Positions 1-57,473 of a stretch of DNA of 64,000 nucleotides are shown piece by piece. Below the pieces are notes generated by a model. The model did no database searches. It saw only the letters and a program-made list of their open reading frames with translations, and was not told where the DNA came from. This DNA is from an uncultured Clostridia bacterium (GTDB lineage: Bacteria > Bacillota > Clostridia > Christensenellales > UBA1242): NCBI GenBank assembly GCA_944381215.1, contig CALWKF010000001.1:65201-129200 (forward strand), written 5' to 3'. Made by a program: the position numbers and the translations under genes. Numbering within the stretch: position 1 is the first letter of the stretch; each line of letters starts with the position of its first letter.

Positions 1-761
1 CGGAACTTTTTATACAAGGCTTGTGCCTCCTCATCCGCGTTAAAACTAACTATGCTAAACGTGTAATCGGCGATATTTTGTCCATTTTCTTTGACATTGC
101 TGTATAATTTTGAAACGGCAGATTTAAACGATTTTGCCTTGTCCAAAATCTTGAAATTTCCGTCCGTGTCGATACTGATTATCGGCTTTAGATTGAGGCT
201 CGCCCCCGTAAACGAACTCATTGCCCCCTTAAACACCTGGCTAGCCTTTATGCTGTCTGCGCTGTCCACGACGAAAATGCTGACAAATTTCCCGATTAAC
301 GTGTCCGCAAAGTCGAGTGCAGCCTCGAGGTCGCCCTCGCGCTCGTAAACAACCTTAGAAAGTGCTGCAATCTCACTCGTACCGCGCGAAACGGTCTTGG
401 TATCCATTAAAATGGCCATATTTTTAGGGTACTTTTTATTGAGGTCGCGAAAAGCGCGTTTTAGGCCCTCGCCATTGTCTAGTAGAAGCTTCGTCGACAC
501 CGAGAAGTACACCACATCGTTACCAGCCTTCAACTCCTCTTCGAAAAAGTCATACCACTCCTGATATTCTAGGGGGACGACCGAGTACTTGCCCGCGCGA
601 ATCTCCTCCGCGATTTTAGCAAAGTCGTTTGCTTTTGTGTAGTTTTTGAAATATGAAATGCGCGAGCCGTGCTTGATTTTGCTAGGGACTAAATTTAAAT
701 CAGTTATTTTTAATTCCTTGCCAAACATATCAGCATACGCATCAATATAAAATTTTACCAT
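1..761 (-). CDS. DegV-like (fatty-acid-binding family) protein; C-terminal end runs off the window
   Basis: Minus-strand frame is open from ATG (comp. 759-761) to position 1. It is absent from the ORF track because no stop falls in the window. AGGAGG at comp. 768-773. Translation MVKFYIDAYADMFGKELK...FSVSTKLL...MDTKTVSRGTS...FVVDSADSIKAS...LNLKPIISIDTDG resembles DegV motifs by eye. Confidence 0.5.
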   Translation of the reverse strand, partial: MVKFYIDAYADMFGKELKITDLNLVPSKIKHGSRISYFKNYTKANDFAKIAEEIRAGKYSVVPLEYQEWYDFFEEELKAGNDVVYFSVSTKLLLDNGEGLKRAFRDLNKKYPKNMAILMDTKTVSRGTSEIAALSKVVYEREGDLEAALDFADTLIGKFVSIFVVDSADSIKASQVFKGAMSSFTGASLNLKPIISIDTDGNFKILDKAKSFKSAVSKLYSNVKENGQNIADYTFSIVSFNADEEAQALYKKF

Positions 762-823
762 TTTTAGCCTCCTAGGCTACATTATACCATTTTAAAAATA
801 ATTAAGTCAACGAAATTTGCGAT

Positions 824-1360
824 TTAATAAAATTTAGTGTAGATTGTTATGTTTTGCTTGATTTTGGATAAATAATAGTTTGTGGCAGGGTAAGGGGTTG
901 AGGTTAACCGCTCGCCGTCGCTAAATTCTGGGTCGAGGAGCCACTCCTTAACGCGTGTTGGCCCCGCATTATAGGCGCACAACGCTGTGTCCGTGTCCTT
1001 AAAAGTGTCCACTAAATATTTAATATACGCCGTGCCCAAGGTGATGTTATACTCGGGCTCGAAAAGTCTGTTTTTATCAAATGTAATACCTTCTTTATTT
1101 GCAATAAACTTCGCAGTCTCGGGCATCAATTGCATTAGGCCTACTGCTCCCACGCTTGATACCGCTTGCGTATCAAAACCGCTTTCGGCATTGATTACAC
1201 TTGCGATTAGGACAGGTGGCAAATTATACTCATTTGCGATACTAATAATATTCTCACGATAGGCAAGCGGGTAAAATATTAAAAAAGCCCCGACAATCAG
1301 CCCCGACACGCAGACAATTCCTATAATATATAATATAATAAAAAACATAATTTTGTCCAT
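824..1360 (-). CDS. membrane-anchored lytic transglycosylase (SLT domain)
   Basis: N-terminal TM helix, then the SLT signature AESGFDTQAVSSVGAVGLMQLMPETA...AYNAGPTRV. Confidence 0.85.
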   Translation of the reverse strand: MDKIMFFIILYIIGIVCVSGLIVGAFLIFYPLAYRENIISIANEYNLPPVLIASVINAESGFDTQAVSSVGAVGLMQLMPETAKFIANKEGITFDKNRLFEPEYNITLGTAYIKYLVDTFKDTDTALCAYNAGPTRVKEWLLDPEFSDGERLTSTPYPATNYYLSKIKQNITIYTKFY

Positions 1361-4301: not shown

Positions 4302-4965
4302 TATATTGACACTTTTTCCCGATAGTTTTGCACCACTACGCGAAAGCATAATAGCGCGAGCCGTTGATTCGGGAAAATTCGACCTAAATATAATAAACAT
4401 CCGCGACTTTTCAACGGACAAGCATAAAAAATGCGATGACGAAATCTTCGGGGGCGGGGACGGACTCCTCATGATGCCTCAACCTCTATTTGATTGTATC
4501 GAGAGTGTAAGAAATAAAAACTCGCACATTATCTACTTATCCCCAAAGGGCACGACCTTTACCCAAACTAAGGCCAAGCAACTCGTAGAATACGAGCACC
4601 TAATATTAATTTGCGGACACTACGAGGGAATCGACCAGCGAGTGATTGACACCTTTGTCGACGAGGAAATCAGCATCGGCGACTACGTGCTGACTGGTGG
4701 GGAACTGCCCGCTATGGTCGTGGTCGACACGGTGGCACGGCTTATTCCAAACGTGCTCCACAGCGAGAACTCGGCAAAGGACGATAGTTTCGAGAACAAC
4801 CTGCTCGAATACCCGCAGTACACGCGCCCCGCTGACTTTCGCGGACTAAAAGTGCCCGAAATACTCCTTAGTGGCAATCACCAGGAAATCGCCAAGTGGC
4901 GAAAAGCGCAGAGCGAACACATTACAAAAGAGCGTCGCCCCGACCTAATTGATAAAAATAACTAA
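4291..4965 (+). CDS. trmD: tRNA (guanine37-N1)-methyltransferase
   Basis: MRIDILTLFP...GGGDGLLMMPQP...YEGIDQRV motifs. Confidence 0.95.
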   Translation: MRIDILTLFPDSFAPLRESIIARAVDSGKFDLNIINIRDFSTDKHKKCDDEIFGGGDGLLMMPQPLFDCIESVRNKNSHIIYLSPKGTTFTQTKAKQLVEYEHLILICGHYEGIDQRVIDTFVDEEISIGDYVLTGGELPAMVVVDTVARLIPNVLHSENSAKDDSFENNLLEYPQYTRPADFRGLKVPEILLSGNHQEIAKWRKAQSEHITKERRPDLIDKNN

Positions 4966-5088
4966 TTACTTATGACACTTGTCATATATGCCTCTTTACG
5001 CGGGGGCGGATAATTAAAAAACAAACTCATACTTTAAATAACTTTATAAAATGATAATTACCAAGACACAAAACAAAAGGAGTAAATT

Positions 5089-5934
5089 ATGAAAATTCAG
5101 TGGTTTCCAGGGCACATGACAAAGGCCTTGCGCGAAATGGAGAAAAACATCAAACTCATAGATTTAGTAATTTACGTGCTCGATGCCCGCGCGCCAAAGA
5201 GCTGTTTAAACCCGCAATTTCCCGAAATCATGGGCAACAAGCCGATTATTTATGTATTAAATAAAATCGACCTTGCCGACGATAATCAAACCAGCCTCTG
5301 GCTAAAACACTACAACGCATTTGAAAATTCGATGGCACTTCCGCTGAATTCAACCATGACAAACGCCAGTAAAACGATAATTAGCGGAATGGAAAAAATG
5401 TTGAGTAAAAAACTCGAGCGCAATAGGGAAAAGGGTGTTACAATGCCCCTACGTGCTATGGTCATAGGCGTGCCAAACTGCGGAAAAAGCACCTTAATAA
5501 ATAACCTTTGTGGTAAGTACAAGGCAATCACGGGCGACAGACCAAGTGTTACGAGGGCTACCCAGTGGGTGCGAATTGCAGGCTACCTAGAACTTTTGGA
5601 CACCCCAGGCACCTTGTGGCCAAGTTTTGAGGACGACGAAGTTGCGCACAACCTAGCTTACATAAACGCTATTAAAGACGAAGTGCTCGACCCCGCGGAA
5701 TTGGTGCTCGACTTTATTTCTAAAATGCTAAGCACCTACCGCGAGCTTTTCTTGGCGCGCTACGGCCTAACGTATAGTGAGGATATGCAACCCGTAGACT
5801 ATCTTGCTAAGGTCTGTGAAAACCGCAAGTTTATGCTCCGCGGCGGCGAACTCGATTGGGAGCGCGGTGCCAGGGCGATTCTCGACGATTTTAGAAAGGG
5901 CCGAATCGGTAAAATTACGCTAGACAGGTTATAA
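5089..5934 (+). CDS. rbgA: ribosome biogenesis GTPase A (YlqF/RbgA)
   Basis: MKIQWFPGHMTKA start, circularly permuted GTPase (NKIDL...GVPNCGKST...DTPG). AAGGAG RBS. Confidence 0.9.
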   Translation: MKIQWFPGHMTKALREMEKNIKLIDLVIYVLDARAPKSCLNPQFPEIMGNKPIIYVLNKIDLADDNQTSLWLKHYNAFENSMALPLNSTMTNASKTIISGMEKMLSKKLERNREKGVTMPLRAMVIGVPNCGKSTLINNLCGKYKAITGDRPSVTRATQWVRIAGYLELLDTPGTLWPSFEDDEVAHNLAYINAIKDEVLDPAELVLDFISKMLSTYRELFLARYGLTYSEDMQPVDYLAKVCENRKFMLRGGELDWERGARAILDDFRKGRIGKITLDRL

Positions 5935-5935
5935 A

Positions 5936-6280
5936 ATGAAAATATTTAACAGAGCAAAGGGTATACAAGGCGAGCAACTAGCCCTAAAATACCTGAGTAG
6001 ACATAAATTCAAGATTTTAGAGAAAAACTATACATGCCCAGTTGGCGAGGCGGACATAATCGCCATAAATAACGGAATGCTGGTCCTAATCGAGGTAAAG
6101 AGCAGGTCAACTCTCGAATTCGGTCGCCCCGCCGAAGCGGTAGACAGCGTAAAGCAACGAAAGTTACAAAACATCGCCCTTTTTTACCAAAAGAAAAAAC
6201 ACTTGTTTAATATGCCCGTGCGCTTTGATGTCGTGGAAGTACTGGGTACGGAAATCAACCACATAGAAAACGCCTTTTAA
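5936..6280 (+). CDS. yraN: YraN family (UPF0102) endonuclease-like protein
   Basis: GEQLALKYL...GEADIIA...LVLIEVKSR motif pattern. Confidence 0.85.
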   Translation: MKIFNRAKGIQGEQLALKYLSRHKFKILEKNYTCPVGEADIIAINNGMLVLIEVKSRSTLEFGRPAEAVDSVKQRKLQNIALFYQKKKHLFNMPVRFDVVEVLGTEINHIENAF

Positions 6281-6336
6281 CGAAAAATTTTAGTAATAAT
6301 TAGGTAACAATATTTAATTAAATTCAGGAGGAAGTT

Positions 6337-7455
6337 ATGAAAATAGAAAATTTAGGAGAATACGAGGGTGAGATTTTAAATTTAGATGGTAAAATTTTAC
6401 CTCACGGGATTGGGAAATTAGTGACAAATGATGGGGCTATTTTAGAGGGAAAGTTTTACGAAGGTAAACTAAATGGCAATGGTAAAATCACTTACACCGA
6501 TGGTAGTAGTTTTGAGGGCAATTTTAGAATAGGTAAATTAAATGGATACGGTACCCAAGTTTATTCTAACGGAAATATCTATAAAGGAAATTTTGTAGAT
6601 AATATAAAAGTCGGTATGGGTCGACTTTACTTTAAACGCGGTAGATATAAGTATATTGAGTGTGTGTGGAAAGATGATGAAATGTTTGCTGATTTTATTA
6701 TTGGACTAAAAAATGGTACACAGAGAAGGGCGAAGATTGTTAATTCGAAAATTCATCTAATCAAACCTAACAAAAAATATTTGATAAATGTTGATGGCGT
6801 TAAACCATTTTCAGTATACGATATTTATCACGAAAGTGAGTATTTTAGTTTTAATACAACAAATTGGGATAGCGATGAAAAGTATTTGTATAATAAGTTT
6901 TTAGTAACTGAACTTGAAGTAGCAGACCTAAACCATAATGTTTTTCGGGCTAATCCCGTACATGATAATTTAGACTTTCTTGTTTTGCCTAATAATAGTG
7001 ATTTATACAAAGATTACAGGGCAGAATTTTTTGGCAAAGTTATGAGCAAGGTTTTCGATTATATTAGAGGGAAAACAGAGTTAGCAGGTGTTATCATAAA
7101 AGAAATACTAAGTAATTTTGACACAAATAAGATTTGTCAGCGAATAAAGAAGTACAAGGATAGGTGGCTGAGGCGAAAAGAGGATTTTTCATTAGTAATA
7201 GGGGATGAAAATGTAAATTCTATTTTAAATGACCTAAATGCAGATAATCTTGAGAATAACGAATTTATCTTATCTTTGCCGCAAAAGACCGCCGAACTTT
7301 TAGACACCGTGAGTGATGATACATTAAGGAAAAATATTAATATAAAAATTGAAATAGATGCGGAAAATCAGCAGGCAAGTTTATTTGTATATGATGAAAT
7401 GGGATTCATTGAATTTATTATAAATATTGATATAAGAGACATTTTGAAAAAATAA
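6337..7455 (+). CDS. MORN-repeat protein with uncharacterised C-terminal domain
   Basis: N-terminal ~100 aa are tandem MORN-type repeats (YEGEIL..GKILPHGIGKL..GAILEGKFYEGKLNGNGKITYTDGSSFEGNFRIGKLNGYGTQVYSNGNIYKGNF). AGGAGG RBS. The gene is visibly AT-richer than its neighbours. Confidence 0.7.
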   Translation: MKIENLGEYEGEILNLDGKILPHGIGKLVTNDGAILEGKFYEGKLNGNGKITYTDGSSFEGNFRIGKLNGYGTQVYSNGNIYKGNFVDNIKVGMGRLYFKRGRYKYIECVWKDDEMFADFIIGLKNGTQRRAKIVNSKIHLIKPNKKYLINVDGVKPFSVYDIYHESEYFSFNTTNWDSDEKYLYNKFLVTELEVADLNHNVFRANPVHDNLDFLVLPNNSDLYKDYRAEFFGKVMSKVFDYIRGKTELAGVIIKEILSNFDTNKICQRIKKYKDRWLRRKEDFSLVIGDENVNSILNDLNADNLENNEFILSLPQKTAELLDTVSDDTLRKNINIKIEIDAENQQASLFVYDEMGFIEFIINIDIRDILKK

Positions 7456-7953: not shown

Positions 7954-7971
7954 TTTTTCTACAATATTTAA

Positions 7972-7997
7972 AGAACCGTTTCCGCGGTTCTTTTTTG
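7972..7997 (+). terminator. rho-independent terminator of rplS
   Basis: agaaccg / cggttct 7-bp stem with a 6-nt loop, then a T run. Confidence 0.75.
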
Positions 7998-8003
7998 CTT
8001 TTT

Positions 8004-8335
8004 AAAGAGGATACTGGGCTGGCGCGGTGCGTAGGTGTATTCCAAATATATTTAGGGTCATCCTGAGTGTCGACCCGCGTAGCCTTTGTAACTCAGCGCA
8101 TATGGAAAGTAGCAATAGAAATATTTAGCATGACGCTGCCCGAAGGATCTCATTCCTGCCTCTTAAAACAAACGGAGCACAAGTAATCGCTTTAAGAGGC
8201 TACTGTGGCTAGCGCGAGAGCATTCATTTCTAATTATACCAATCACTTACGCGCCAGACTTCCCGCAAGCGGGAAGGCATCCTGAGCCCGCCCCGCGAAG
8301 CCTTTAGACGAAGGATCTATTCCTCTTAGATACTT
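8004..8335 (+). repeat. mosaic GC-rich intergenic repeat array 1 (same module family as 59250-60062)
   Basis: Modules: X (8014-8056, CTGGGCTGGCGCGGTGCG...ATATATTTAGG); long core (8057-8153, GTCATCCTGAG...GTAACTCAGCGCAT...GACGCTGCCCGAAGGATCTCAT); Y (8203-8277, with the cttcccg-caag-cgggaag hairpin at 8259-8276); short core (8278-8320). No ORF. Confidence 0.85.
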
Positions 8336-8382
8336 TTCCCAGTATTTTACAGCCTCTAATTTTCTAAAAAACTTCGATTAAT

Positions 8383-8411
8383 TTGCTAAAACCTCTAAAT
8401 ATTGATATAAT
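8383..8411 (+). promoter_or_regulatory. strong sigma-A promoter of paralogue A
   Basis: TTGCTA (8383-8388), 17-nt spacer, TGaTATAAT extended -10 (8403-8411). The same block recurs at 60157-60185. Confidence 0.6.
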
Positions 8412-8452
8412 ATAAATATCAAATATTATTTATATCATTAGGAGGCCAAAAA

Positions 8453-8512
8453 ATGGAGCACTCTTTTAATACAAAAATGCATAAAAACCTACGGGGGGGG
8501 GGCGCTTTCTAG
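8453..8512 (+). other. 5' leader ORF (MEHSFNTKMHKNLRGGGAF*) carrying G10; the true N-terminus of paralogue A when the tract is 9 or 12 G
   Basis: AGGAGG at 8440-8445, ATG at 8453. With 10 G the frame stops at TAG 8510-8512. Deleting one G reads through as ...NLRGGALSSLIISCIAILILCAVFGLSFAQF..., in frame with ORF 8553-10772. Confidence 0.7.
8493..8502 (+). repeat. poly(G)10 homopolymer (candidate slipped-strand switch)
   Basis: Counted directly: acGGGGGGGGGGcgc. Confidence 0.9.
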
Positions 8513-8552
8513 CCTAATAATATCTTGTATCGCAATTCTTATTTTATGTGCG

Positions 8553-10772
8553 GTGTTCGGCCTATCCTTTGCTCAATTTATCAAAAACTCCAGCAACCCA
8601 GTAAACGCATTTACCGTTAGTAGCTCAAATGCGGTCATAGTTCCTCAACTATGGAACAGCAGTACACAGTCTTTTAACCGTGATGCAATGTCTACGCTAC
8701 TTAAGTACATATCAAGCGATGGTTCCATTAATAGAGTAAACACCACTCAACAAACCGCGGCAGATATTCGTGGATACACCTATAACGGCAAAACAAATAG
8801 TCAGGCAGTAGTAGTAACCATAGGCGATTATCAGTGGCAAGTAGTCTACCTTACTCGCACAAACAACACCAGTGGTGATCGTATAGCCACACTCTTAATG
8901 GTAGACAATGGTGGCACCGCTTCATTTAGTCACGGTGGATATGATAGAGGTAACAACTGGACAGGTGCTTATCCCTCCAATATGTATGGTGCTAGTTACC
9001 TTCGTGCTGTTACGCTAAACAATGGTGGAACGTACGCTAATATTACTGTTACTTATAGTAATTCATACTCAACTGCAACAGCAACTCAGTCCTCATCTCA
9101 TAAATACGCTTTATATACGGTAGCCTCACAAGGACTAACTAATTACTTAGTACAGCCTAAAAATGTATGGTATCAAACACGGGCTCAACTAACAGGCAGT
9201 GCTAATCCAGAAGGTTACACTTTAAACAACGAGTCTCTATCCACAACCATAAGTACAGGCTGGAACAACAATAATGCTTCTACTTACTCTTATCAATCTA
9301 AAGCCAACTACACGCAGTGGAGGAATGACTATCTCTGGTGTCCTAGCCTTTCAGAAACAGGTACAAGTAATTCTAAGTTAGGTATTTGGGAGTTATCCAC
9401 AACAGAACGTTCAGCTTCTACTGATTGGTGGTCGCGGTCTGGTGGCTATTCTAATTCGGACTCTGCTTACTACCTTGATTCCTCCGGCTCCAGCTGTAAT
9501 GACAGCGTTGTGCACTATAACAACGGCGTGCGGGTAGCGCTTCACTTAAATCTTGATAAAATTGCTCAAGATTTAACATACGCAATAACTGCCACATCGG
9601 ATACACAAAGTATCGTAGATAAAAATTCGTTAGAATACTACTTATTATTAAACGCCGAAGTTACCTTTACATATACTGCAAACCCCAATTATTATATAAA
9701 TCAAGTTCAAATTGGTTCTACTACAGTAACTAATTTCCAAACTACAATACCTAGTAGTTTTACTAACGCGGGTACTTTTCAATACAAGGCATATAGAGTA
9801 AATAATAGTAATAGTGTAAGTGTGGTGTTAAAGTCACTTACTACCGATTTAAATTTATCGTGTAGTGCGCAATCATACATTAATATCTCCACCGAAAACG
9901 CGGCGGTAACCGTAAATAGTTATAATCGAACGAATTATTTTTCTACGACCGCTACAATTTCCGTTCAACAAAATGTGGCATACACCCAGAGGTTTAGATT
10001 ACCAAGCCAAAACTGGATAGATATTAGCACAACTGCCTCGGGCGATGGTTATGTCGGCAGTATTTATTACCAGTACACGACCGCCAATAATGTTATAACC
10101 CTAAATTTCGAAAACCTCACCTTAGGCACAGTTTTTGAGGTCATCTTCAGCGGAGATGAGAAACCACTCTCATACACTGCAACGGGTGGCACGGCGACCT
10201 TCGAGGAATTTATAGATGATGAGGGCTACACCAATATAATCGTGCGCCCAGCAGAAGGCTATTATGTGAACACGATTACGGTCGACAACGTGGCCTTTAC
10301 TGTCGAGTACTACCGCGCCGAAATCATGGGGGCGGGCAATGCTCGAATTATCGGCTACACCGTAAAGGACACCAACAACGTGCTCGACTTGTGGCTCGTT
10401 GGGCAGTACGACAACTCCAACATCGTTTTCAACCTCTCCACAACTCGCCCTACCTACAGAGTCCCCGCGACAGGTGGGGCGGTTACTGGCACGGTAGTTA
10501 CTGCTGGTGCTGGCGGTGAAGCGCGCATTGTGGGCTTTGACTCAAGCGACACCGCAGATACTGACACTCTTACCTTTATCGCGGTAAGTTACTCGGGCTA
10601 CGCCTTCTCGGGCTGGGAGGTCGACGGCCAAATTCTCTCGGGCTACGGTTCGAATGCCTCGATTCCGTATTCGCTAGTTAAGGACAAAGTGGTAACCGCA
10701 GTCTTTACACCCACTTCGAATAACTCCGCAAACGGCACCACCGACAACCCCTGGGGCTCCGACATCGCCTAA
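8553..10772 (+). CDS. large secreted/surface protein, paralogue A: WWSRSG...GVRxALHLNL head (DUF6273-like) plus InlB-B-repeat-like C-terminus; as sequenced it lacks its signal anchor
   Basis: 739-aa ORF starting at an internal GTG with no RBS. Residues ~20-340 are highly similar by eye to the 60559-62511 product. The C-terminal YSGYAFSGWEVDGQ...VTAVFTP is a Listeria/Bacteroides-type B-repeat motif. Confidence 0.8.
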   Translation: MFGLSFAQFIKNSSNPVNAFTVSSSNAVIVPQLWNSSTQSFNRDAMSTLLKYISSDGSINRVNTTQQTAADIRGYTYNGKTNSQAVVVTIGDYQWQVVYLTRTNNTSGDRIATLLMVDNGGTASFSHGGYDRGNNWTGAYPSNMYGASYLRAVTLNNGGTYANITVTYSNSYSTATATQSSSHKYALYTVASQGLTNYLVQPKNVWYQTRAQLTGSANPEGYTLNNESLSTTISTGWNNNNASTYSYQSKANYTQWRNDYLWCPSLSETGTSNSKLGIWELSTTERSASTDWWSRSGGYSNSDSAYYLDSSGSSCNDSVVHYNNGVRVALHLNLDKIAQDLTYAITATSDTQSIVDKNSLEYYLLLNAEVTFTYTANPNYYINQVQIGSTTVTNFQTTIPSSFTNAGTFQYKAYRVNNSNSVSVVLKSLTTDLNLSCSAQSYINISTENAAVTVNSYNRTNYFSTTATISVQQNVAYTQRFRLPSQNWIDISTTASGDGYVGSIYYQYTTANNVITLNFENLTLGTVFEVIFSGDEKPLSYTATGGTATFEEFIDDEGYTNIIVRPAEGYYVNTITVDNVAFTVEYYRAEIMGAGNARIIGYTVKDTNNVLDLWLVGQYDNSNIVFNLSTTRPTYRVPATGGAVTGTVVTAGAGGEARIVGFDSSDTADTDTLTFIAVSYSGYAFSGWEVDGQILSGYGSNASIPYSLVKDKVVTAVFTPTSNNSANGTTDNPWGSDIA

Positions 10773-32565: not shown

Positions 32566-35500
32566 ATGAGTACATTCTTGAGGGGTGTAAACCTATCTAA
32601 AAAGTGGTTAAAGATTACATTATTTGCCCTTTTAGCGGTCGTTTGCGCCACTGCGATTACTCTCGCGGTAGTCCTCTCTGGTCGCGATAACTATGTCGTT
32701 ACACCAGAGACAGAGTCAAAGGTCGAGGTGCTAGATTCCAGTGCGATTGTGTCTAAAAATGGCTGGAATAACACCTTGCTAGCACAACTCACTCAAAATG
32801 TGACTTCGTATGGGGATAATGTTGCTCTTGGTAATGCGGGTGGCGACATTGTGTCCTCAGTTGTTGAGTTGGGCGGTATTTCGTGGACCGTCGTATACAT
32901 GCAAGATGGTATAGTTACACTGTATGCAAATGAGGCAGTGGCTACTATGCCTTTTGGCAATACTGAATATAAAAATAGTCTAGTTAGAGATTACCTAATC
33001 AACGAATTTTACCCTGAGTTTATCGAAAAAATCGGCTATACCGACATCGAAAAATACATAATTCCTTATGGGCAGAGCGATATCTACTACCAGGCTGACG
33101 GCGCGCAGGCTGTTGTTTTGAGCACCCTAAATGGTGGCGAGATTAGCGGTAACGACGGCGTGGCAAACGATATGGTTTGGCTACCAAGTGCCTACGAAGT
33201 GGGCGGTTTTGCTAATAACGATTCTTCACCAAAATCACGTGTAAATAGTTTTAAAGTTATCGAGGCTGACGGCTTTACTTTAAATAGTGGTCTATTTAAC
33301 ACTTCAAACACTATTAGGCTTATGACCGATACATCTTGGCTCCGTTCTAGCGTAAATGGTGCACAATCAGCACTCAAAGATGGTGTTGTAAAGCAAGTTA
33401 ATGACGGGGAGTACGCAGTGCGCCCTTGTATCAATATCGCTCTTCCAGGCCTTGCTGACATTGTCGAAGTAAGCGAAGATATCGACAGTTCAAATGATAC
33501 CATTCTCGCAACTGTTGCTCCTGACTACTCGGACATTTTCAAAGAGTATTCTGACAATCAAGGTGAAGGCACGCAAGCAAGCCCTTATGTATTCTCTGAT
33601 CGCCAATTCCTAATCTATCTATCTGACGCAGTTATGGCTGGTCAGGATACAACTGATATGTACTTTCAAATGGCCGGTGACATCGACATGACTGGTGTGA
33701 CTGTTTGGAGTCCAATTGGTAGGGAAGGGTTCCCATTTAAGGGTCATTTTGATGGTAACGGTTACACTGTTAGCAACCTCGCTTCGGCAGGCTCGGGCCT
33801 TGTAGGTCTATTTGGCTATGTTGAAAATGCTGTTATTACTCAAGTGGGTGTTACAAATTCCTCTTGGTACACAACAAACTCTAATGTCGGCGGTATCGCA
33901 GGCCACGTTACAAACTCGCTAATTTCCGAGTGCTACAGCGATTGTGGTGTCGGTGGATACAAATATGTTGGTGGTCTAGTAGGTAGAATTATTCGTAGTA
34001 CTTCAACCGACGACTCTAAGGGTATTATAAACTGCTACAACCTCAATGGTATCACTGGCCGTGATTATGTCGGCGGTATCGCAGGTGAGGTATCAGCATC
34101 ATTAGTTAAAAACTGCTATAACACTGGTGCTACACAGGCAATCTACTCAAACCCAAGTTGCGGTGGTATTGCAGGTGCTCTAAACAACTCACCTAGTACC
34201 AGTTCGCTACAAAACTGTGTCTTCTACAACTCAACTGACAACAACCTTAACGGCGACACACCAATTTCATCTTATGACACTCTGCGTAACAGGGATGCAA
34301 TCGCTACTACATACCCAAGCTGGTCATTTAGGAACACCACCGCTAATGGCGTATGGTTCATGTCTAACGTAGTAAACGATCGTCTGCCTATGCTTTACTG
34401 CTTTATGCACAATGTTTCCGTTAACCTAATTTCGAACATCCCCGAGTGCTCCGTTTCTGCTGGCAAAACTGATGCGCAGATTAACTCGACACTCGCTATC
34501 GTTGCCTACGCAACTTCTACTACTAACGAGCACTACATGTTCGAGGGCTGGTATCACTTCGATGTTGACGCAGCAGGGAACAAGATTGAGGGGTCCGAGC
34601 GTCCGTTTGTGCTAATGTCTGATGAAAACAACGGAATTACAAAAGGCGCACTTTCTAATAACGCATACCCCTTCACATACAATCTAGTGTTAGACGACTA
34701 CTACAACCTCGAAGCGCGCTTTGTAAAACTATACAACTTTGAAGTAAGTCCTATGTTTAATGGCTTCACATCAAACTATACTGGTGGCTCTACATTTAGT
34801 TATACCGCTCATAACAGTGAAATGACTGCTGTACAGCCTGCTTATAACACTGATTTAACCACATGGACTAGCGGTGCTAGATGGTACCCTGAGGGCACTG
34901 TAATTACAATCAATATTCAGCCCGATGCTCAGCGTCAGTACTATCAATTAAATGTTGGACACAGCAGTACTAATGTTAATAATCAAGTGGCTAATCTAGG
35001 TGAGGATAATCCTTTCTACAACTTATCTTCAGGAGAGAATGGCTGGACATATAATATCACTATTAGAGATACAGCGGAATGGAATGGCTTTGATGTGTTC
35101 TATTTCAGACCTATGTTTAACAGGGTATATGCTCTCACCACTTCAGTAACTACTCCGTCAGGATACACCGAGACTACACCTATTTCACAGGTAACGTTTA
35201 CTAATCTGTCCAATGGCTCGACTACTATTAGCAGTAGTGGTGGAACAGCAACTGACAACACTATCTACACATCGACATTGACACTTAATATATCCAACTT
35301 AAATGATGTAAGTGGCAAACTCGTGTTCAGTAGTTGGATTCTAGAGTTTGTCGACCCAAGTGCTGGGGCACAAAGCTCTCAAGACCTTGGATCAAGTGTT
35401 GGTGCTACAAATGGGCAATATGCATTAACTGGCATTCAATCTGCTGTAACAGACACAACAACAGGCATTAATATTAGGGCAAACTTTAATTACGACACAA

Positions 35501-37197
35501 AACAGGTGTCAATTAGGGAAATGTACAACAGTGCTGAAAATTCTAATGCAGGTTACGTATATCTTTCCACAGAAAAGAAGGAGTCAAGTTTTGTGCCTAC
35601 ACAGGACATAACACAACTTACAAATCTTGACTACAACTCGACTGTCTACATCTACATTTTGCCTAACTATGCTGGTGGTTTCCAATACTCTTCGAACACT
35701 ATTCCTGGGGCTAACCTTACATCAAATTCATCTACTGGCGTAACTTATGGTAGTTTTGTAGTAAACTTTGCCGAAAGCAGTGCTACATATGATGTAGTAT
35801 ACACCGAGGCTAGCAACTTTGCGCTCAACTTTAATGTAACGCTGAATGGTGCAACACCTCCAGAAGACACCTTCCAAGTGTCAAGTAACGCAACTGGCCT
35901 CACTCTAAACTCGCCACTTAGCAGTTACACTGTAACCGTTTTGGGTGAGAACGAGTACAGAAAGTACTACATGAGAACTGTTAGAGTCGCATTCATTCCT
36001 GACTCTCTCGATGCAAATGGGACTACAATTATTACCTATACACCTAGTGGAATTTACCAAGGAACACAGGGTGCTCAGTCGATATTTGCGGGCCTTGGAG
36101 CAAACGCAGTTGTTAACAACATTTACACGAAAGCAAATGTTACGCCGAGCAACAAGAACACAACAATTTATGTTTACATTAACTACATTACGATTACTCG
36201 TACAATTAATGTAACTGAGTATATTGACAATGTTCCCACAACTTCTCGTAGTATGTACTCAATCACTGCTACTGGCGTTACAAACGGAAAGGGTGGTAGT
36301 GATTACATCCTAGAGGACACTATCACTCTAACTGCTGGCGCGTCAGGGGCTGATCAAATCGGTTTTAGAGTTGACTCAATTACAATTACTCCAAATCTTG
36401 CTGCTGCAACTATTGATGGCTCTACTTGGGGAAATTCTGGTACCCTTAAATTTAAGTTAACCGAGGATGTATCAATTTCAATTTACTACACTCAACGTCC
36501 ATACAACATCACTATCGGCGACAACTTAAACAACACAAGTTATGGTAGCACAGTTACTGGATTGAAAGTTACTGTTAGCAACAACCACTTTAACTACACT
36601 TTAACTGGTGGTTCTTCAACGCAATACAGCGCACCATTTACGGGTTTATTCTCTAATAGCTTAACTATTAATGGTTATCAAACTCAAATTGATTTAACAA
36701 TTGATGATTTAAAGCGCAAGGCAGTGCTTAATCGTATCGTTGTGCTCGATTCGAACAATGCTTTACTAAAGGAATATGACCCAGCATCGCAATTTACCTA
36801 CACACTAAACGATGCAAACGACAATATAAAAATTGTATTCCAGTATCAACTGTTACAGGCATTAAATGTAACATTTAGTGATGAAGTAACTGGGGGAAGT
36901 AACGCAGCACTCGTAGTTCTCGAAAATGTACATGATTCTAGCGACCGCCTAGTACTAATCGTACCAGCAGGGCAAGACGGTGTTACAGTAGATTGTCAAG
37001 TTGCTGAATACCGCGTAACTATTACCGTTGCAATCTTTGTTCAAACCGCTGTAAATACTACTCCTGTTGGTTCAGGTAGTGTGCAGGACGGTAACTACCA
37101 GATTTCTATTGCAGATGGAAAGGCAACTTCGGTAGCAATTACAGTGCAAAACATTATTAACGGTGTGGACAGCGTGTTTGCATCAGGCTCGATGTAA
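32566..37197 (+). CDS. giant surface protein: N-terminal signal anchor, DUF6273-like head, GLUG-motif repeats, long Ser/Thr/Asn-rich beta-rich region
   Basis: TM LKITLFALLAVVCATAITLAVVL. MVWLPSAYEVGG...SWLRSS...YAVRPCINIAL (same head family as the two paralogues). Repeated VGGIAG / VGGLVG ...NCYN (GLUG-like). GGAGGA RBS. Confidence 0.85.
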   Translation: MSTFLRGVNLSKKWLKITLFALLAVVCATAITLAVVLSGRDNYVVTPETESKVEVLDSSAIVSKNGWNNTLLAQLTQNVTSYGDNVALGNAGGDIVSSVVELGGISWTVVYMQDGIVTLYANEAVATMPFGNTEYKNSLVRDYLINEFYPEFIEKIGYTDIEKYIIPYGQSDIYYQADGAQAVVLSTLNGGEISGNDGVANDMVWLPSAYEVGGFANNDSSPKSRVNSFKVIEADGFTLNSGLFNTSNTIRLMTDTSWLRSSVNGAQSALKDGVVKQVNDGEYAVRPCINIALPGLADIVEVSEDIDSSNDTILATVAPDYSDIFKEYSDNQGEGTQASPYVFSDRQFLIYLSDAVMAGQDTTDMYFQMAGDIDMTGVTVWSPIGREGFPFKGHFDGNGYTVSNLASAGSGLVGLFGYVENAVITQVGVTNSSWYTTNSNVGGIAGHVTNSLISECYSDCGVGGYKYVGGLVGRIIRSTSTDDSKGIINCYNLNGITGRDYVGGIAGEVSASLVKNCYNTGATQAIYSNPSCGGIAGALNNSPSTSSLQNCVFYNSTDNNLNGDTPISSYDTLRNRDAIATTYPSWSFRNTTANGVWFMSNVVNDRLPMLYCFMHNVSVNLISNIPECSVSAGKTDAQINSTLAIVAYATSTTNEHYMFEGWYHFDVDAAGNKIEGSERPFVLMSDENNGITKGALSNNAYPFTYNLVLDDYYNLEARFVKLYNFEVSPMFNGFTSNYTGGSTFSYTAHNSEMTAVQPAYNTDLTTWTSGARWYPEGTVITINIQPDAQRQYYQLNVGHSSTNVNNQVANLGEDNPFYNLSSGENGWTYNITIRDTAEWNGFDVFYFRPMFNRVYALTTSVTTPSGYTETTPISQVTFTNLSNGSTTISSSGGTATDNTIYTSTLTLNISNLNDVSGKLVFSSWILEFVDPSAGAQSSQDLGSSVGATNGQYALTGIQSAVTDTTTGINIRANFNYDTKQVSIREMYNSAENSNAGYVYLSTEKKESSFVPTQDITQLTNLDYNSTVYIYILPNYAGGFQYSSNTIPGANLTSNSSTGVTYGSFVVNFAESSATYDVVYTEASNFALNFNVTLNGATPPEDTFQVSSNATGLTLNSPLSSYTVTVLGENEYRKYYMRTVRVAFIPDSLDANGTTIITYTPSGIYQGTQGAQSIFAGLGANAVVNNIYTKANVTPSNKNTTIYVYINYITITRTINVTEYIDNVPTTSRSMYSITATGVTNGKGGSDYILEDTITLTAGASGADQIGFRVDSITITPNLAAATIDGSTWGNSGTLKFKLTEDVSISIYYTQRPYNITIGDNLNNTSYGSTVTGLKVTVSNNHFNYTLTGGSSTQYSAPFTGLFSNSLTINGYQTQIDLTIDDLKRKAVLNRIVVLDSNNALLKEYDPASQFTYTLNDANDNIKIVFQYQLLQALNVTFSDEVTGGSNAALVVLENVHDSSDRLVLIVPAGQDGVTVDCQVAEYRVTITVAIFVQTAVNTTPVGSGSVQDGNYQISIADGKATSVAITVQNIINGVDSVFASGSM

Positions 37198-38145: not shown

Positions 38146-38185
38146 AAAGTTTTAGATTTGGGCAATCTAATTCTTGGAGGAAAAT

Positions 38186-41100
38186 ATGAATTCGAATAGA
38201 TTCTTTAAGTTGAGCAAATGGAAGATAATGCAAACCGTTCTCTTGTTGCTTTTAGGAGCGGTTGTTGCAATATCTTTCTTGGTGCCTAATTCCATTTCAA
38301 ATAGGAATTATGTAAGTGCAGATGAGGTCGATGCAGTGCCAGCGAGTTCGCTTGAAGGATTTGTTCCTACTGCGCTAGGTAGTGGTGAATACTTCGAGAC
38401 CGAGGTCGATTCTAGTGTCGAGCCAAATGCTACTTACTACCTAATTAGTGATGCGGATGACTTGCGCACGCTAGCTTACTTTGTAAACACTACATTTACA
38501 GAGGAGCAGACTAGCGAATTAGAGTTGCAGGAGAAATATTCGCGCGCATCTTACCGCATGACGAATCACATCGACCTGTCTAGGTGGACTCAATGGGAGC
38601 CTATTGGTACCATGGCGAATCCTTTCTCGGGGTCGTTTAGTGGACAGGGGTATTCGATTTATGGCTTAACCATTATCGATGATATCGAAGAGCCTACTAC
38701 AGATACTTATGCTGGTTTATTTGGTAATGTATCTTATCTAAAGGACGGCGACACTGAATATAAGCCCGTGATTCAGCGTCTAGGTCTAAAAGACACTATT
38801 ATCAAAACAAATCGCGAGTATGTCGGCTCAATTGTGGCAGTTGCCAATGGTGTAAACCCCATGATTTATGGTGCTGATGCCATTATCAACCCCACTTTTA
38901 GGACAAAAACTGAGGTTGAAAACATCAGTAGTGATGAAACAGTAAACAGGGCATATTCCGATGCTCAAGGGTCACTCGTTATCCAAGACTGTTACAATGT
39001 AGGTTATGTTGAGGGTGGCAACTATGTAGGTGGCCTTGCTGGTGCACTCTACTACGGTGCTGTAATCTACAACTGCTACAACGCACCCTCGACCACCAAC
39101 GCCTACAACACAAACTACGACGTATACTCTAGCAACGCAAACTCCAATATCGGTGGTATAGTTGGTGCTGGTGATTTTACCACAATGGCTATCGTATATA
39201 ACTGTATTAGTACGGTGAGTGTATCAAAACAAGATGCCACCAACAGTTCAACCAACATCGGTTATATCATTGGTAGCAAGTCAAATCTTGCAGGTAGCAC
39301 CCAGTACACATATAACGTTTATTATAATAGGAATTTTACATATTCAGGTGATTTCGGTACTGGTTTAAGTCTAGCACGTTTATCTTCGACATCTTACTTA
39401 ACAAATAGAGGCTTCTCAATTACAGGTTATAACCCTGGCACTTGGGCTAGCAATACATCAACTATTTGGGCTCAACAATCGGATGTAAACAATGGTGTGC
39501 CAGTGCTCTACAATGTCCCGCAATTAGTTAAATACGACTTTGTGGCACAGGATGTTGACGGGAATGAATTAATAGCTAGCGAAGCAATATCTGAGGCCGT
39601 AGACACTGCGGACTTAGAGGCATACGATGGCGCATTGCTATTTGAGCAGGGGACTTCGTTCTTAACTAGAGGTACTTCGGTAATGGAATATAAGTACGAG
39701 TTCAGCAAGTGGAGTGAGTATTATACTGCAAACTCTATAGAGCCTGCCGAGTATGAGGACTATATTGCAAATTCAGATATTTCAAGCGTCCAATTCTTCA
39801 CAAATCACGATGCTACAATCATTGCCGTGTTCGGCTTCAAGACTTATACACTTACGCTAACAGCAGACCCTTCAGATAAGATTGATGGCGAAAATACAAT
39901 TATATCGATAAGAGATGGCATTTCTAATACTTACAATAATGTCCAGAACGGTCTCACTGTTGAGTATAATGACGAGATAACAATCCAAGGTGTTGCTACT
40001 ACTGGTTATGAGATTAGTGCTTGGACAACTATGTATCAAGATGCAATTTCTGGTACAGGTGCGGACATTACATTAAGCGTTCAGGCTTATGTAGACGCAT
40101 ATATGAGTGCTTCACAAGCTGAAATTCCCGTAAGCCTTAATATAATCGCACATATTCAGCCAAAATCGTATGACTTTTCAATAAATGAAATCGACTCTAG
40201 CATTGGTACAATTACCGCTACAGTGAATGGTGGGGATAGCCTAGGCACTAGCGACAGCGTAGAGTTTGGCTCTCAAATCGCGCTTCAAGCAACAGTTACA
40301 GACCCTAATTATGAGTTTATTTCATGGGTGATTTCGTTTGGGAATGGAACGACTCAACAAATTGAATTACTAAACTATTCTTTCACGGTTCAAGATCAAG
40401 GTAGTATCAGCATTACCGCAAACTTCGATAAAAAGAAGTTTTACGTAACCATTTCATCGGTCGCAGGCGGTAGTGCCTCGGTAATCAGCGCAACTGAGTC
40501 ATCAACTAGTGGCAATAGCTTCTATTACGATGAGACAATAGAAATTCAAGCTACAGCAAGCACTGGTTACGAATTAACTGGAATTAATGTCTACAAGGGC
40601 GAGGAACTCATAGATCTTGACTCCGAGGGAATGGTATTTGACCTTGAGTCAGGAGTACTTACAATTAATACCTTAAATGCAGACATCCGCGTAGTTCCCG
40701 TGTTTAGCATTATGAGCTTTGACCTAACAGTTGTAGTTACCCCAGCGGACGGCGCAACAGTTACTTATAACGGCGAAAGCATCGTGGGTACGAACGAGTT
40801 TGTTTATAATACAGACGTTCCAATCAACGTGTTTGTGACAGAGGGGTACGAGTTAGTTAGCATAACCTCCGATGACGGAGCTGTTTATTCAAATGGTAAC
40901 TTCGTAAAAGTTTTGAAAGATACCACAATCACTATCACTTTGCAAAAGCAAACGTTTGTCGTAAATGTTACAATAAACTATGATTCAAGCTCTGCTTATT
41001 CAATCGATGCAAGTTGCATTAATGGAGTAGGTCAGTACACCTATGGCGATGTAGTTGAAATCAGCTTTGACACCCCCGTTATGTTTAGGTTCTCTAGGTG

Positions 41101-42724
41101 GGATCTCGCTAGAAATTATGAAAACAGTAGTTACGACAGTGTAAACGGAACATTTACTTGCACTGGAATTGAAGAAAATATTTATCTAACCGTATACTTT
41201 GCGCTAGTCAACACCCAAATCACATTTACAGCAGAAGGCGTGGATGAAGAGGGCGGATGGTACCTTTACGACGGTAGTAATATGGTTGATACCCAGGGTG
41301 AAATTGCTATCAAATCATACGCAAACGATGTGCGCGTGCAACTAGCTAGCGCATATAGAGATAACGGCGAATACACACGTAAATACACATTTAGCCACTG
41401 GGAAATCAATGGTATTCCCGTATCAAGTGCGAGCGATTACACATTTAAAGTAACTGGCGAAGAAATGAATGTCAACGCCGTGTTTATGCCAGTTGAATTG
41501 CGTGTAACCGCTAATGTTGTCAGAATCAACGAAAACTCAGGCATGTATGATAACCTTAGTGAAGCTGGCGATGTAAAAGGCTTACTAGTAAACACCTACC
41601 ACTATGGCGACGTTATCACTCTTGAAGCGTCAACTCACAAGGGCTTTGTGTTCCTAGGGTGGTATGTTTGGAACGAGAACTTGGATTCGAGCCAAGCAAA
41701 TGGCAGATTCATTACCGATGAGCCAACAATTACTTTAACTATCACATCAAACACCAAGATTTACGCCACTTTCGAGCGTATTAGCAATGTCACTATACAA
41801 ATGTCTGACGACAGCGCAGGCACAACCACTGGTAGTGGTACCTACATGGTGGGCGAAAACATCACCCTGTCTGCAACCCCTAACGCAGGTTACAGGTTCG
41901 TAAGCTGGCAGGAGAACGGTAGTGTCGTAAGTAACGATGCTAACTACCGCTTAACAGTTACTAGGGACGATCGCACTCTACTTGCTGTGTTCGAGCCAAT
42001 TTTTAAGATAACTCTTATTTCTAGTAACGATGACTACGGCAAAATTATTGGCAACACTAGCGGAAACTACCGCGAGAATGTAACCCTAAGGGCTGTCAGC
42101 GAAAACAACTGCTCCTTTGTTGGTTGGGTTATTAACGATAAGATTGTCAGCACTTCTGATACATTAAGCCTAAACCTAAACGGTGATATCGAAGTGCGTG
42201 CACTGTTTAAGAAAAACTTTGACTGGAATATCTTGATTATTTTGGTAGGTTGCGTGCTGTTTGCTGGTATCTTGATTGCTGGTTCCGCAGCTTACATCAA
42301 GATGAGAGAGGCAGAACCAATGCCTGTCCGCGTACTGCTTAATAGCAAGGATGACAAAGAAGCCCTGCAGAAGCCTTCTAGGCGCAATCAATACCGCGAC
42401 ACCATTGAGCCAGTACCTACACGCAAGAATACAAAGGCAAATGTCGCTCCTATCCCTGTTAGAAAGATTACAGTCGCTCCTATTAATCACAAGGGCGAGT
42501 TGGTAGGCAGGACAAAACGCGCCGCTGAGGAGCAACCAACACTAAAGACCGAGACAACTCCTGAAAAACCTATTGAAAAAGAAACAAAGAGTGAAAAGAC
42601 AGAAAAGCCTAAAACCACCACGGCTGCAAAGTCAAAATCAACTCAAAATTCTAAATCAAAGGCAAATAAGGGCAAGAAGTCAGGTGGCAATCACAAGGGT
42701 AAAAAGTCCAAAAAGAAAAAATAA
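38186..42724 (+). CDS. giant surface protein: N-terminal TM, GLUG-motif region, ~10 InlB-B-like repeats, C-terminal TM and ~190-aa Lys-rich tail
   Basis: ATG 38186 behind GGAGG (track TTG 38174 lies in the RBS). YVGGLAGAL...NCYN motifs. Recurring GY(E/R)F(I/V)SW / GFVFLGWY repeat motifs. TM ILIILVGCVLFAGILIAGSAAYI, then ...KGKKSGGNHKGKKSKKKK. Confidence 0.85.
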   Translation: MNSNRFFKLSKWKIMQTVLLLLLGAVVAISFLVPNSISNRNYVSADEVDAVPASSLEGFVPTALGSGEYFETEVDSSVEPNATYYLISDADDLRTLAYFVNTTFTEEQTSELELQEKYSRASYRMTNHIDLSRWTQWEPIGTMANPFSGSFSGQGYSIYGLTIIDDIEEPTTDTYAGLFGNVSYLKDGDTEYKPVIQRLGLKDTIIKTNREYVGSIVAVANGVNPMIYGADAIINPTFRTKTEVENISSDETVNRAYSDAQGSLVIQDCYNVGYVEGGNYVGGLAGALYYGAVIYNCYNAPSTTNAYNTNYDVYSSNANSNIGGIVGAGDFTTMAIVYNCISTVSVSKQDATNSSTNIGYIIGSKSNLAGSTQYTYNVYYNRNFTYSGDFGTGLSLARLSSTSYLTNRGFSITGYNPGTWASNTSTIWAQQSDVNNGVPVLYNVPQLVKYDFVAQDVDGNELIASEAISEAVDTADLEAYDGALLFEQGTSFLTRGTSVMEYKYEFSKWSEYYTANSIEPAEYEDYIANSDISSVQFFTNHDATIIAVFGFKTYTLTLTADPSDKIDGENTIISIRDGISNTYNNVQNGLTVEYNDEITIQGVATTGYEISAWTTMYQDAISGTGADITLSVQAYVDAYMSASQAEIPVSLNIIAHIQPKSYDFSINEIDSSIGTITATVNGGDSLGTSDSVEFGSQIALQATVTDPNYEFISWVISFGNGTTQQIELLNYSFTVQDQGSISITANFDKKKFYVTISSVAGGSASVISATESSTSGNSFYYDETIEIQATASTGYELTGINVYKGEELIDLDSEGMVFDLESGVLTINTLNADIRVVPVFSIMSFDLTVVVTPADGATVTYNGESIVGTNEFVYNTDVPINVFVTEGYELVSITSDDGAVYSNGNFVKVLKDTTITITLQKQTFVVNVTINYDSSSAYSIDASCINGVGQYTYGDVVEISFDTPVMFRFSRWDLARNYENSSYDSVNGTFTCTGIEENIYLTVYFALVNTQITFTAEGVDEEGGWYLYDGSNMVDTQGEIAIKSYANDVRVQLASAYRDNGEYTRKYTFSHWEINGIPVSSASDYTFKVTGEEMNVNAVFMPVELRVTANVVRINENSGMYDNLSEAGDVKGLLVNTYHYGDVITLEASTHKGFVFLGWYVWNENLDSSQANGRFITDEPTITLTITSNTKIYATFERISNVTIQMSDDSAGTTTGSGTYMVGENITLSATPNAGYRFVSWQENGSVVSNDANYRLTVTRDDRTLLAVFEPIFKITLISSNDDYGKIIGNTSGNYRENVTLRAVSENNCSFVGWVINDKIVSTSDTLSLNLNGDIEVRALFKKNFDWNILIILVGCVLFAGILIAGSAAYIKMREAEPMPVRVLLNSKDDKEALQKPSRRNQYRDTIEPVPTRKNTKANVAPIPVRKITVAPINHKGELVGRTKRAAEEQPTLKTETTPEKPIEKETKSEKTEKPKTTTAAKSKSTQNSKSKANKGKKSGGNHKGKKSKKKK

Positions 42725-56957: not shown

Positions 56958-57108
56958 AATGTTTACCTTTTAGTTAGAATAATCACGCATATTTCTAGTG
57001 CATAATATACATCCTATTATATATCATTACTAAAATAAAAGCAAGTTTTTACACGCACTTTAAATAGATAAATTTTGCACTTTAACAATAAAATGCGGGG
57101 AAAAGAGG

Positions 57109-57465
57109 ATGACTGTATCAAAAATTAGCGGTTTAGTAGTCGCGGGAATGGTAATTGGAGTCATAAATGGCTTTTTTGGCGGTGGGGGCGGAATGATATG
57201 CGTGCCAGCACTCCTGCTACTCGGCCTAAAAAACAAAGAGGCCCAAGCAACCGCAATTTTGATTATGCTACCCATAAGTATTGCCAGCGCGATTGTTTAT
57301 TATTCAAACGGCTTTGTTGATTGGTGGACCGTGCTGTTTGTCGCAATTGGCTCAATATTCGGCGGAATAGTCGGGGCGTACTTGCTTAAAAAATTATCAA
57401 ACAATGTTTTACAATATATTTTTGCTGTCGTGGTGCTGTCGGCTGGTATTAGAATGCTGTTTTAG
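57109..57465 (+). CDS. TSUP (TauE/SafE) family transporter, half-size subunit 1
   Basis: GFFGGGGGMICVPALLLLG glycine motif. 118 aa, about 4 TM segments. Confidence 0.8.
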   Translation: MTVSKISGLVVAGMVIGVINGFFGGGGGMICVPALLLLGLKNKEAQATAILIMLPISIASAIVYYSNGFVDWWTVLFVAIGSIFGGIVGAYLLKKLSNNVLQYIFAVVVLSAGIRMLF

Positions 57466-57473
57466 GAGGGGTT

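Follow-up and report, generated by a model that had tools for sequence, protein, structure and literature searches.

Known contingency loci and the stretch analysed

The poly-G contingency loci of Campylobacter jejuni are intragenic tracts of the G8-G11 class, which belong to multi-gene families and stand in a low-GC genome otherwise avoiding G/C runs; their targets are mostly glycosylation and capsule enzymes, and their hypermutability is tied to absent mismatch repair. Repeats in promoter spacers are represented by Neisseria porA and opc (poly-G/C) and Mycoplasma hyorhinis vlp (poly-A). Among gut commensals, the phase variation described so far consists, to our knowledge, chiefly of invertible promoters in Bacteroides and a few Firmicutes. 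Bacteria of the Christensenellaceae type, which are almost wholly uncultured, are prominent in the gut, heritable and associated with health. One Campylobacter poly-G example is discussed in PMC3417653. In Neisseria gonorrhoeae, the part of pilC1 and pilC2 that codes for the signal peptide contains a homo-G tract (Jonsson et al. 1991, summarised in PMC5354566). Listeria monocytogenes inlA has a 5' poly-A tract (A7) in which slippage inactivates the gene, mostly one way (Orsi et al. 2010, PMC2831843). The stretch analysed here, designated as the window, is 64,000 nt (64 kb) of DNA from an uncultured Clostridia bacterium of Christensenellales (contig CALWKF010000001.1, assembly GCA_944381215.1). 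Ten consecutive G (G10) at its positions 8493-8502 set the gene of a predicted surface protein (locus 1) out of frame with its leader. This tract is very probably a simple sequence repeat (SSR) contingency switch operating by slipped-strand mispairing on a cell-surface protein gene, and the allele in the window would be OFF.

Anatomy of locus 1

The features of locus 1 are as follows (ORF, open reading frame).

8339-8355, plus strand: conserved motif CCAGTATTTTACAGCCT, about 28 nt 5' of the -35 hexamer and common to the family promoters; a putative element
8383-8411, plus strand: sigma-70-type promoter-like site TTGCTA-17-TATAAT with extended -10 TG; consensus match only, at 10/12 positions
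8440-8445, plus strand: Shine-Dalgarno AGGAGG, 7 nt 5' of ATG 8453; kept in L067-L075
8453-8512, plus strand: leader frame at G10 (OFF), which reads MEHSFNTKMHKNLRGGGAF and then TAG at 8510-8512; in silico translation
8493-8502, plus strand: G10 homopolymer with C on either side, the proposed switch
8502-8573, plus strand: hydrophobic signal-anchor segment ALSSLIISCIAILILCAVFGLSFA, at G10 one base out of frame with the ATG and read only at G9 or G12
8553-10772, plus strand: gene body, a mechanical 739-aa ORF from GTG 8553, with DUF6273-like N-terminal domain, middle region and C-terminal InlB B-repeat
9426-9533, plus strand: variable region WWSRSGGYSNSDSAYYLDSSGSSCNDSVVHYNNGVR of the diversity-generating retroelement (DGR) type, at the C-terminal end of the DUF6273-like domain

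Anatomy and frame arithmetic are directly readable here. A first-pass annotation of the window had placed the G10, ATG 8453 and the TAG at these positions and had named the AGGAGG, and every coordinate proved correct when the sequence was read again; the promoter that it named was recovered by a consensus scan (TTGCTA-17-TGnTATAAT), with the TG present. The same promoter-like module was found at 60157-60185 and in all orthologous loci. At up to three mismatches, CCAGTATTTTACAGCCT has exactly two matches in the window (8339-8355 and 60113-60129), each 5' of a family gene, and it is found also in L001, L059, L061 and L064.

Leader codons 1-14 constitute the basic n-region of a signal peptide. 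When the tract was swapped in silico, G9 and G12 gave products of 772 and 773 aa from ATG 8453, while G7, G8, G10, G11 and G13 gave merely 18-21 aa. The annotation had thus been right in stating that the loss of one G or the gain of two fuses the leader to the 739-codon frame, and that the gene is ON only at tract lengths that are a multiple of three, the present allele being OFF. The repaired N-terminus is MEHSFNTKMHKNLRGG(G)ALSSLIISCIAILILCAVFGLSFAQF, with the basic n-region, tract-derived Gly codons and a hydrophobic stretch of 24 residues with the terminal AXA-like SFA. The repeat is therefore inside an ORF and a one-unit change alters the predicted product, as in contingency loci. The 739-aa ORF does begin at the internal GTG 8553 with neither ribosome-binding site nor signal peptide: this codon is inside the hydrophobic segment, it has no Shine-Dalgarno, and its product would be devoid of the signal anchor. 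The frame upstream of it is open back through the G tract. AlphaFold2 modelling of the repaired N-terminal 383 aa with a 15-sequence alignment reached a mean predicted local distance difference test score of 46.8, too poor for a fold search; in this low-confidence model, residues 14-43 of the repaired N-terminus form a helix.

Rarity of long G runs

The window has a G+C content of 42.7%. Apart from the G10 at 8493-8502 and a second G10 at 60403-60412, it has no G run above 6 and no C run above 5, and the G10 of locus 1 is far from a chance feature. In the window and 83 fetched loci (about 498 kb), 28 G runs of at least 8 were found and zero C runs of this length. With one exception, in a terminator-like hairpin in L018, these runs (27/28) are in the promoter of a family gene or at its 5' end; all are sense-strand poly-G. 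The G10 of locus 1 is an uninterrupted repeat of a length sufficient for hypermutability (homopolymeric G/C of at least about 7-8). Poly-G/C tracts are generally under-represented in prokaryotic genes according to a survey (PMC2831843), and the G8-G14 runs found here stand out for that reason.

Tract length at the same locus in other strains

Ten contigs with the orthologous locus between rplS and leuS (L067-L076) were fetched by exact match to the L19 protein (rplS) encoded just upstream. All tract lengths are those of consensus assemblies, and some contigs have only 4-5x coverage.

Window and L067: G10, OFF; L067 is 100% identical to the window across 7,342 nt
L068: G8, OFF
L069, L071, L073 and L074: G9, ON; four samples with at least 99.9% mutual identity, in which a 765-aa gene is called from the same ATG
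L070: G10, OFF; 98.75% identical to L069
L075: G11, OFF
L072 (species CASEHF01) and L076: no tract

Four lengths, G8, G9, G10 and G11, are thus observed at one syntenic locus in lineages about 95-99% identical, with conserved flanks, as is characteristic of contingency loci. The promoter, Shine-Dalgarno, leader and anchor around the tract are nearly identical across the tract-bearing orthologues, and the 765-aa gene annotated in the G9 orthologues starts MEHSFNTKMHKNPRGGALSS. The first-pass annotation had proposed that the tract be compared in related genomes and metagenome-assembled genomes (MAGs); the outcome was as it predicted, with G8-G11 between lineages and only G9 in frame, and its phase-switch reading is supported by these alleles. 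The ON protein of L069 and the window ORF are 76% identical overall and almost identical in the C-terminal 200-plus residues. Because its C-terminal half nearly matches this ON orthologue, the OFF allele of the window is not otherwise degenerate. L067 is probably the same strain as the window, given the complete identity over 7,342 nt. A further in-frame case is database protein P0001 (contig L001), which starts MKYSFNTKLHKNLRGGALSSLIISC, with the leader joined in frame via G9; in the DNA of L001, a locus-2-type upstream region is followed by G9 and then by the in-frame full gene.

The tract lies where the basic n-region of the signal peptide gives way to its hydrophobic core, and in the proposed mechanism replication would add or remove a G in it. 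At G9 or G12, translation from ATG 8453 would continue via Gly codons into the signal anchor and a protein of 750-odd residues, predicted to be a cell-surface protein with a DUF6273 C-type-lectin-like domain and InlB B-repeats. At G8, G10 or G11, translation would stop after 19-21 codons, and the gene body has neither a ribosome-binding site nor an export signal to itself. From this scheme we infer reversible switching at high frequency inside a clone, mixed tract lengths among reads and a surface phenotype.

L072 (positions 4781-7073) has the same synteny and no G tract, and its family gene is annotated in two pieces, ORFs of 282 and 486 aa. This orthologue may be inactivated by another route.

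Second G10 and the paralogue at locus 2

A paralogue of the locus-1 gene is found at 60559-62511, and a second G10, overlooked in the first-pass annotation, lies in its 5' untranslated region (UTR).

60157-60185, plus strand: promoter-like site, the same module as at 8383-8411 (TTGCTA-17-TATAAT with TG)
60363-60422, plus strand: relic leader MKYSFNTKLHKNLRGGGAF, closed by a stop codon, from ATG 60363, without Shine-Dalgarno
60403-60412, plus strand: second G10, in the 5' UTR of the paralogue and 150 nt upstream of it
60559-62511, plus strand: paralogue of 650 aa, with its own Shine-Dalgarno AAAGGTGAG at 60545-60553, type-B signal anchor MIKLSKTKTSLIV and variable region at 61492-61599

The block of about 80 nt around 60403-60412 is about 95% identical to the leader of locus 1, and its 32-nt core differs between the loci by one mismatch, where no match is expected by chance. 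The block is followed by about 110 nt of AT-rich sequence and then by the separate Shine-Dalgarno. Whatever the tract length, stops occur in all three frames between the relic leader and 60559. A consensus scan revealed no better promoter closer to the paralogue than 60157-60185, and examination of the sequence at locus 2 revealed no terminator or coupling feature linking the relic G10 or its upstream ORF to the paralogue. The paralogue had been described as intact: its 650-aa ORF with own Shine-Dalgarno and anchor stands, and yet the gene is not simply intact, as it bears a relic of the switch in its 5' UTR. Its N-terminus had also been said to parallel that of the repaired leader, which is not so, since MIKLSKTKTS... 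is a different type of sequence and no homologue. The proteins of the two loci are 74% identical across the first 343 residues. The paralogue is identical to database protein P0002, encoded on a 177-kb contig.

The lengths of the relic tract are as follows.

Window: G10
L059, syntenic orthologue (TauE-TauE-sigma70-112 aa-gene): G9
L058: G12
L061, paralogous locus in the context of pfk/rpsT: G10

Length polymorphism is therefore observed between paralogues as well as between strains. The variation of the relic tract is best read as a probable intrinsic mutability of the sequence, because no frame is at stake there, and the relic serves as an internal control for mutability. The module of promoter, leader, tract and type-B start recurs at another genomic locus (L061), far better conserved than the coding regions.

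Several further observations concern the surroundings of locus 2. Transcripts of the locus-2 type have an insert of about 150 nt (L001:396-600; window 60190-60365), from a GGAGGG near the predicted transcript start to the leader ATG. Folding of this insert that brings the distant GGAGGG to the ATG was considered, with CAACAACAA/UUGUUGUUG paired in the minimum free energy structure, but the z-score is only -1.8 and such folding is not claimed. A protein of the sigma-70 family (regions 2 and 4) is encoded at 57974-58681, two genes 5' of locus 2, in synteny kept in L059. GC-rich repeats CATCCTGAGCC...GACGAAGGATCT, which are hairpin-like units, were found at 7995-8330 and 59288-60060; at locus 2 they form tandem units of about 298 nt. 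Within the window these repeats are confined to the two intergenic regions just 5' of the family promoters, and they are present in L001, L059 and L061. Rfam (gathering threshold) and ARAGORN gave zero matches over the whole window, and the GC-rich intergenic region 7960-8330 is therefore no known RNA. In L059/L075 (ERZ16268101 scaffold_2260), the locus-2 block is directly 5' of sequence matching window positions 1-1085; in the window this block (57063-62511) is instead 52 kb 3' of locus 1. Either the directly repeated family loci have rearranged with each other in L059/L075, or the order there is an assembly chimera.

Recurrence across Christensenellales

In at least eight Christensenellales species, homologous genes were seen to bear poly-G of 8-14 at the 5' end. 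The distant homologues, with 25-40% identity and from at least seven other species-level MAGs, have G8-G14 at the boundary of the n-region and the hydrophobic core or just past the anchor, in both phases.

ON: L025, G10 (MNNDNLKNLRGGGIPSKRK...); L030, G11; L031, G9; L079, G11
OFF: L012, G10; L022, G14; L036, G11; L080, G8; second gene of L030, G10
OFF: L033, G10, with an in-frame start only without the anchor

The SLIISCI core after the tract is common to the window, L079 and L080. Its recurrence together with the uninterrupted G run, which neutral decay would not predict, points to a probably old leader architecture in which the G run was kept uninterrupted through speciation. In Lapin-030 bin96 (34% GC), G10 is found inside the promoter spacer, TTGACA-ata-G10-ca(a)tac-TATAAT, with a spacer of 18-19 nt. 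These tracts (L017:2721-2730, L027:2749-2758 and L049:2629-2638) are about 250 nt 5' of three family genes, and in such a spacer tract the switch would act on promoter strength. When JGI metagenomes were scanned for the exact DNA pattern of the leader, 0 matches were obtained; a protein-pattern scan gave seven distant loci, two of them with tracts.

Protein family and genomic context

In both window proteins Pfam recognised a C-terminal divergent InlB B-repeat (Flg_new_2), which in the locus-1 gene spans about 10494-10712. DUF6273 was recognised in the N-terminal part of the paralogue only (E = 6e-7), and the locus-1 protein had no DUF6273 match at E <= 0.01; its N-terminal domain is called DUF6273-like on the strength of the 74% identity between the two proteins. 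A search of 5.8 billion proteins, with the first 383 residues of the repaired protein as query, yielded only 40 relatives, all from ENA/NCBI metagenome assemblies. The locus-1 product itself is absent from these 40 matches, as expected if annotators treated the gene as frameshifted. No contig was returned when the 739-aa ORF, the 650-aa paralogue, P0002 and P0022 were looked up by exact sequence. A scan of one genome per GTDB species revealed 56 loci, all in MAGs labelled uncultured Christensenella, Christensenellaceae or Clostridia, with CASEHF01 as the closest species (54-66% identical).

The context in the window is that of an ordinary chromosome, with ffh, rpsP, rimM, trmD, rplS, leuS, priA, uvrAB and rpiB. 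Four further very large ORFs (1092-1543 aa) are coded at 32566-37197, 38174-42724, 44686-48069 and, on the minus strand, 53679-56957. Three of the four match DUF6273, GLUG, InlB B-repeat or Ig-like families, and the ORF at 53679-56957 has no Pfam family. In none of the four was a long G tract seen, nor anything matching the variable region. The stretch of large ORFs may be a region rich in surface proteins.

Variable region and mosaic paralogues

The literature describes DUF6273 as a C-type-lectin-like domain present in phage DGR targets, whose variable region lies where the domain ends on the C-terminal side (PMC10743442, PMC11792537). Both window genes have the variable segment of the family, WWSRSG.Y...S..AY.L.SSGS......V....GVRPALHLNLD, at 9426-9533 and 61492-61599. 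Among paralogues of one genome, changes in the variable codons are confined to positions 1 and 2, position 3 being fixed as C or T, and the bases between variable codons are invariant, synonymous sites included; the two variable regions of the window follow this NNC/NNT pattern. The sister species has a template repeat (L002:510-624), which is non-coding, 5' of a family gene and about 500 nt from a contig end. When this template was compared with six variable regions on six contigs, 91 of the 101 mismatches were at its 33 adenines (Fisher p about 1e-45). In the 64-kb window, queries with the variable regions and with an A-substituted consensus found no template repeat and matched only the two variable regions. 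Among 17 window ORFs scanned against Pfam there was no reverse-transcriptase domain; the remaining window ORFs were unscanned. As neither component was found in the window, DGR targeting of its two genes is suggested by the codon pattern only.

Contig L001 is a mosaic of a locus-2-type upstream region, a locus-1-type signal anchor and a P0003-type C-terminal half, which indicates probable frequent recombination or gene conversion within the family. Three sources of variation, at the least, would then act on the family, namely phase switching by poly-G, recombination of paralogues with one another, and adenine mutagenesis of the ligand-binding loop by a DGR. On balance it seems that in gut Christensenellales a multi-copy, signal-anchored, lectin-like surface family is under these three stacked processes, though our confidence in this is clearly more modest than that in the switch at locus 1. 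The poly-G switch would have been long kept at the boundary of n-region and hydrophobic core and moved to the promoter spacer in one lineage. Paralogues would recombine and exchange promoters, leaders and domains, leaving relic switches in 5' UTRs, and a single DGR template would rewrite the binding loop of many paralogues in trans.

Alternative explanations

Several points weigh against a switch at locus 1. A homopolymer consensus error is possible for any single contig, as the evidence consists of consensus assemblies. L067, being 100% identical to the window over 7.3 kb, may not be independent. The lineage sampled four times is always G9, so that its consensus state is fairly stable or the ON state is selected. 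The relic tract varies too, and polymorphism by itself is therefore no proof of selection for switching. Nor is the switch universal in the family: in CASEHF01, the closest GTDB species, at least seven family loci were found, all without a G tract; because the nearest sister species lacks tracts in this way, the switch would have been gained, lost or bypassed repeatedly.

A sequencing or assembly error, with a real tract of G9 and an intact, constitutively expressed gene, is unlikely. No sites are more prone to error, on any platform, than homopolymers of about 10 nt, the coverage of several related contigs is low, and the uniform G9 of the best-sampled lineage would fit. Against this, L067 reads G10 too, and an invariant G9 would not be expected to yield four lengths at the locus, three at the relic tract and G8-G14 elsewhere, with OFF as common as ON.

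It is quite unlikely that locus 1 is a decaying pseudogene, permanently inactivated by a frameshift at a mutational hot spot and with no adaptive switching. The 739 codons downstream are open and their C-terminal half is nearly identical to that of the in-frame orthologue; the tract is a pure G run in every lineage, and its position is kept across homologues only 25-40% identical, whose genomes (34-47% GC) are otherwise without long G/C runs. These observations stand against decay, in favour of which it may be said that in the window, as in three other lineages, the gene is out of frame, that its product is missing from the protein database matches and may have been deemed frameshifted by annotators, and that the relic leader shows that 5' ends of the family do decay.

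Recoding without DNA change, by RNA polymerase slippage or a +1 ribosomal shift on GGG-GGG, would make G10 a state of low expression instead of OFF. Transcriptional slippage is established for Buchnera poly-A tracts (cited in PMC2831843), and tRNA-Gly is able to re-pair on a G run in the +1 frame. This explanation is nevertheless very unlikely. There is no stimulatory element beside the run (hungry or stop codon in the A site, rare codon, downstream structure), the shift needed is +1 and a -1 slip yields only RFLA-stop, and natural alleles occur in all three phases with no single preferred length, so that the conserved out-of-frame arrangement with stimulatory element that marks programmed frameshifting or slippage is not seen. 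By analogy, transcriptional slippage may make the OFF state leaky without replacing the DNA switch.

That translation normally starts at GTG 8553, the first start codon of the long mechanical ORF, and that the leader is an unrelated small ORF, is hardly credible, as there is no Shine-Dalgarno upstream, the product begins midway in the hydrophobic segment without an export signal, in-frame alleles are continuous from the ATG, and the frame is open upstream of 8553 through the tract.

Significance and comparison with known systems

For Christensenellaceae, full-text literature searches gave no relevant account of phase variation; they also gave none of homopolymers that gate DGR targets. If the reading of three stacked processes is true, this would be the first SSR phasome described for Christensenellales, and the first DGR targets individually gated by homopolymer phase variation, with combinatorial control of which hypervariable adhesins get displayed. 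Homopolymer contingency in a Clostridia order would extend the strategy of Neisseria and Campylobacter to commensal anaerobes, and its action on a DGR-diversified lectin-like family would add to its interest. G-tract length at defined loci would be a marker readable in existing metagenomic reads and could follow host, phage or immune selection. Annotation pipelines will truncate such genes or call them pseudogenes; the protein database matches do not include the product of the window's gene, and the family is thus under-counted.

By analogy, Neisseria pilC is the closest system, and the next ones are the Campylobacter poly-G genes and the leader repeats of Neisseria opa. As in pilC, a G run is found in the signal-peptide coding region of a surface adhesin-type protein with paralogous copies; in pilC, following the summary in PMC5354566, RecA-independent frameshifting toggles translation. 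Unlike pilC, which encodes a pilus-tip protein of a Gram-negative proteobacterium, the gene described here belongs to an uncultured member of Christensenellales, and its DUF6273/InlB-B-repeat protein is known from sequence alone. With Campylobacter jejuni the locus shares intragenic tracts of the G8-G11 class, a low-GC background with few other G/C runs, a multi-gene family and ON and OFF alleles mixed between strains, but the target is a surface protein family and not glycosylation or capsule enzymes. Neisseria opa (PMC5354566) is similar in being a paralogous adhesin family in which copies are switched independently by a leader-coding repeat and recombine with each other; the repeat there is the pentamer CTCTT near the 5' end, whereas here it is a homopolymer.

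Likeness to porA, opc and vlp is found only in the Lapin-030 bin96 relatives (L017, L027 and L049), where the G10 length sets the spacer of 18-19 nt; the window tracts, in contrast, are in the coding region (locus 1) or the 5' UTR (locus 2). inlA is likewise a Firmicute internalin-type surface protein gene with slippage in a 5' homopolymer, but its tract is A7 and the change there mostly one-way. As in the DUF6273 DGR targets (PMC10743442, PMC11792537), the variable region is at the C-terminal end of DUF6273 and the variable codons are of the AAY type; the published cases are phage or prophage receptor-binding proteins, whereas the family here is chromosomal, cellular, signal-anchored and multi-copy. 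The mechanism is of a known kind; the clade and the protein family are new.

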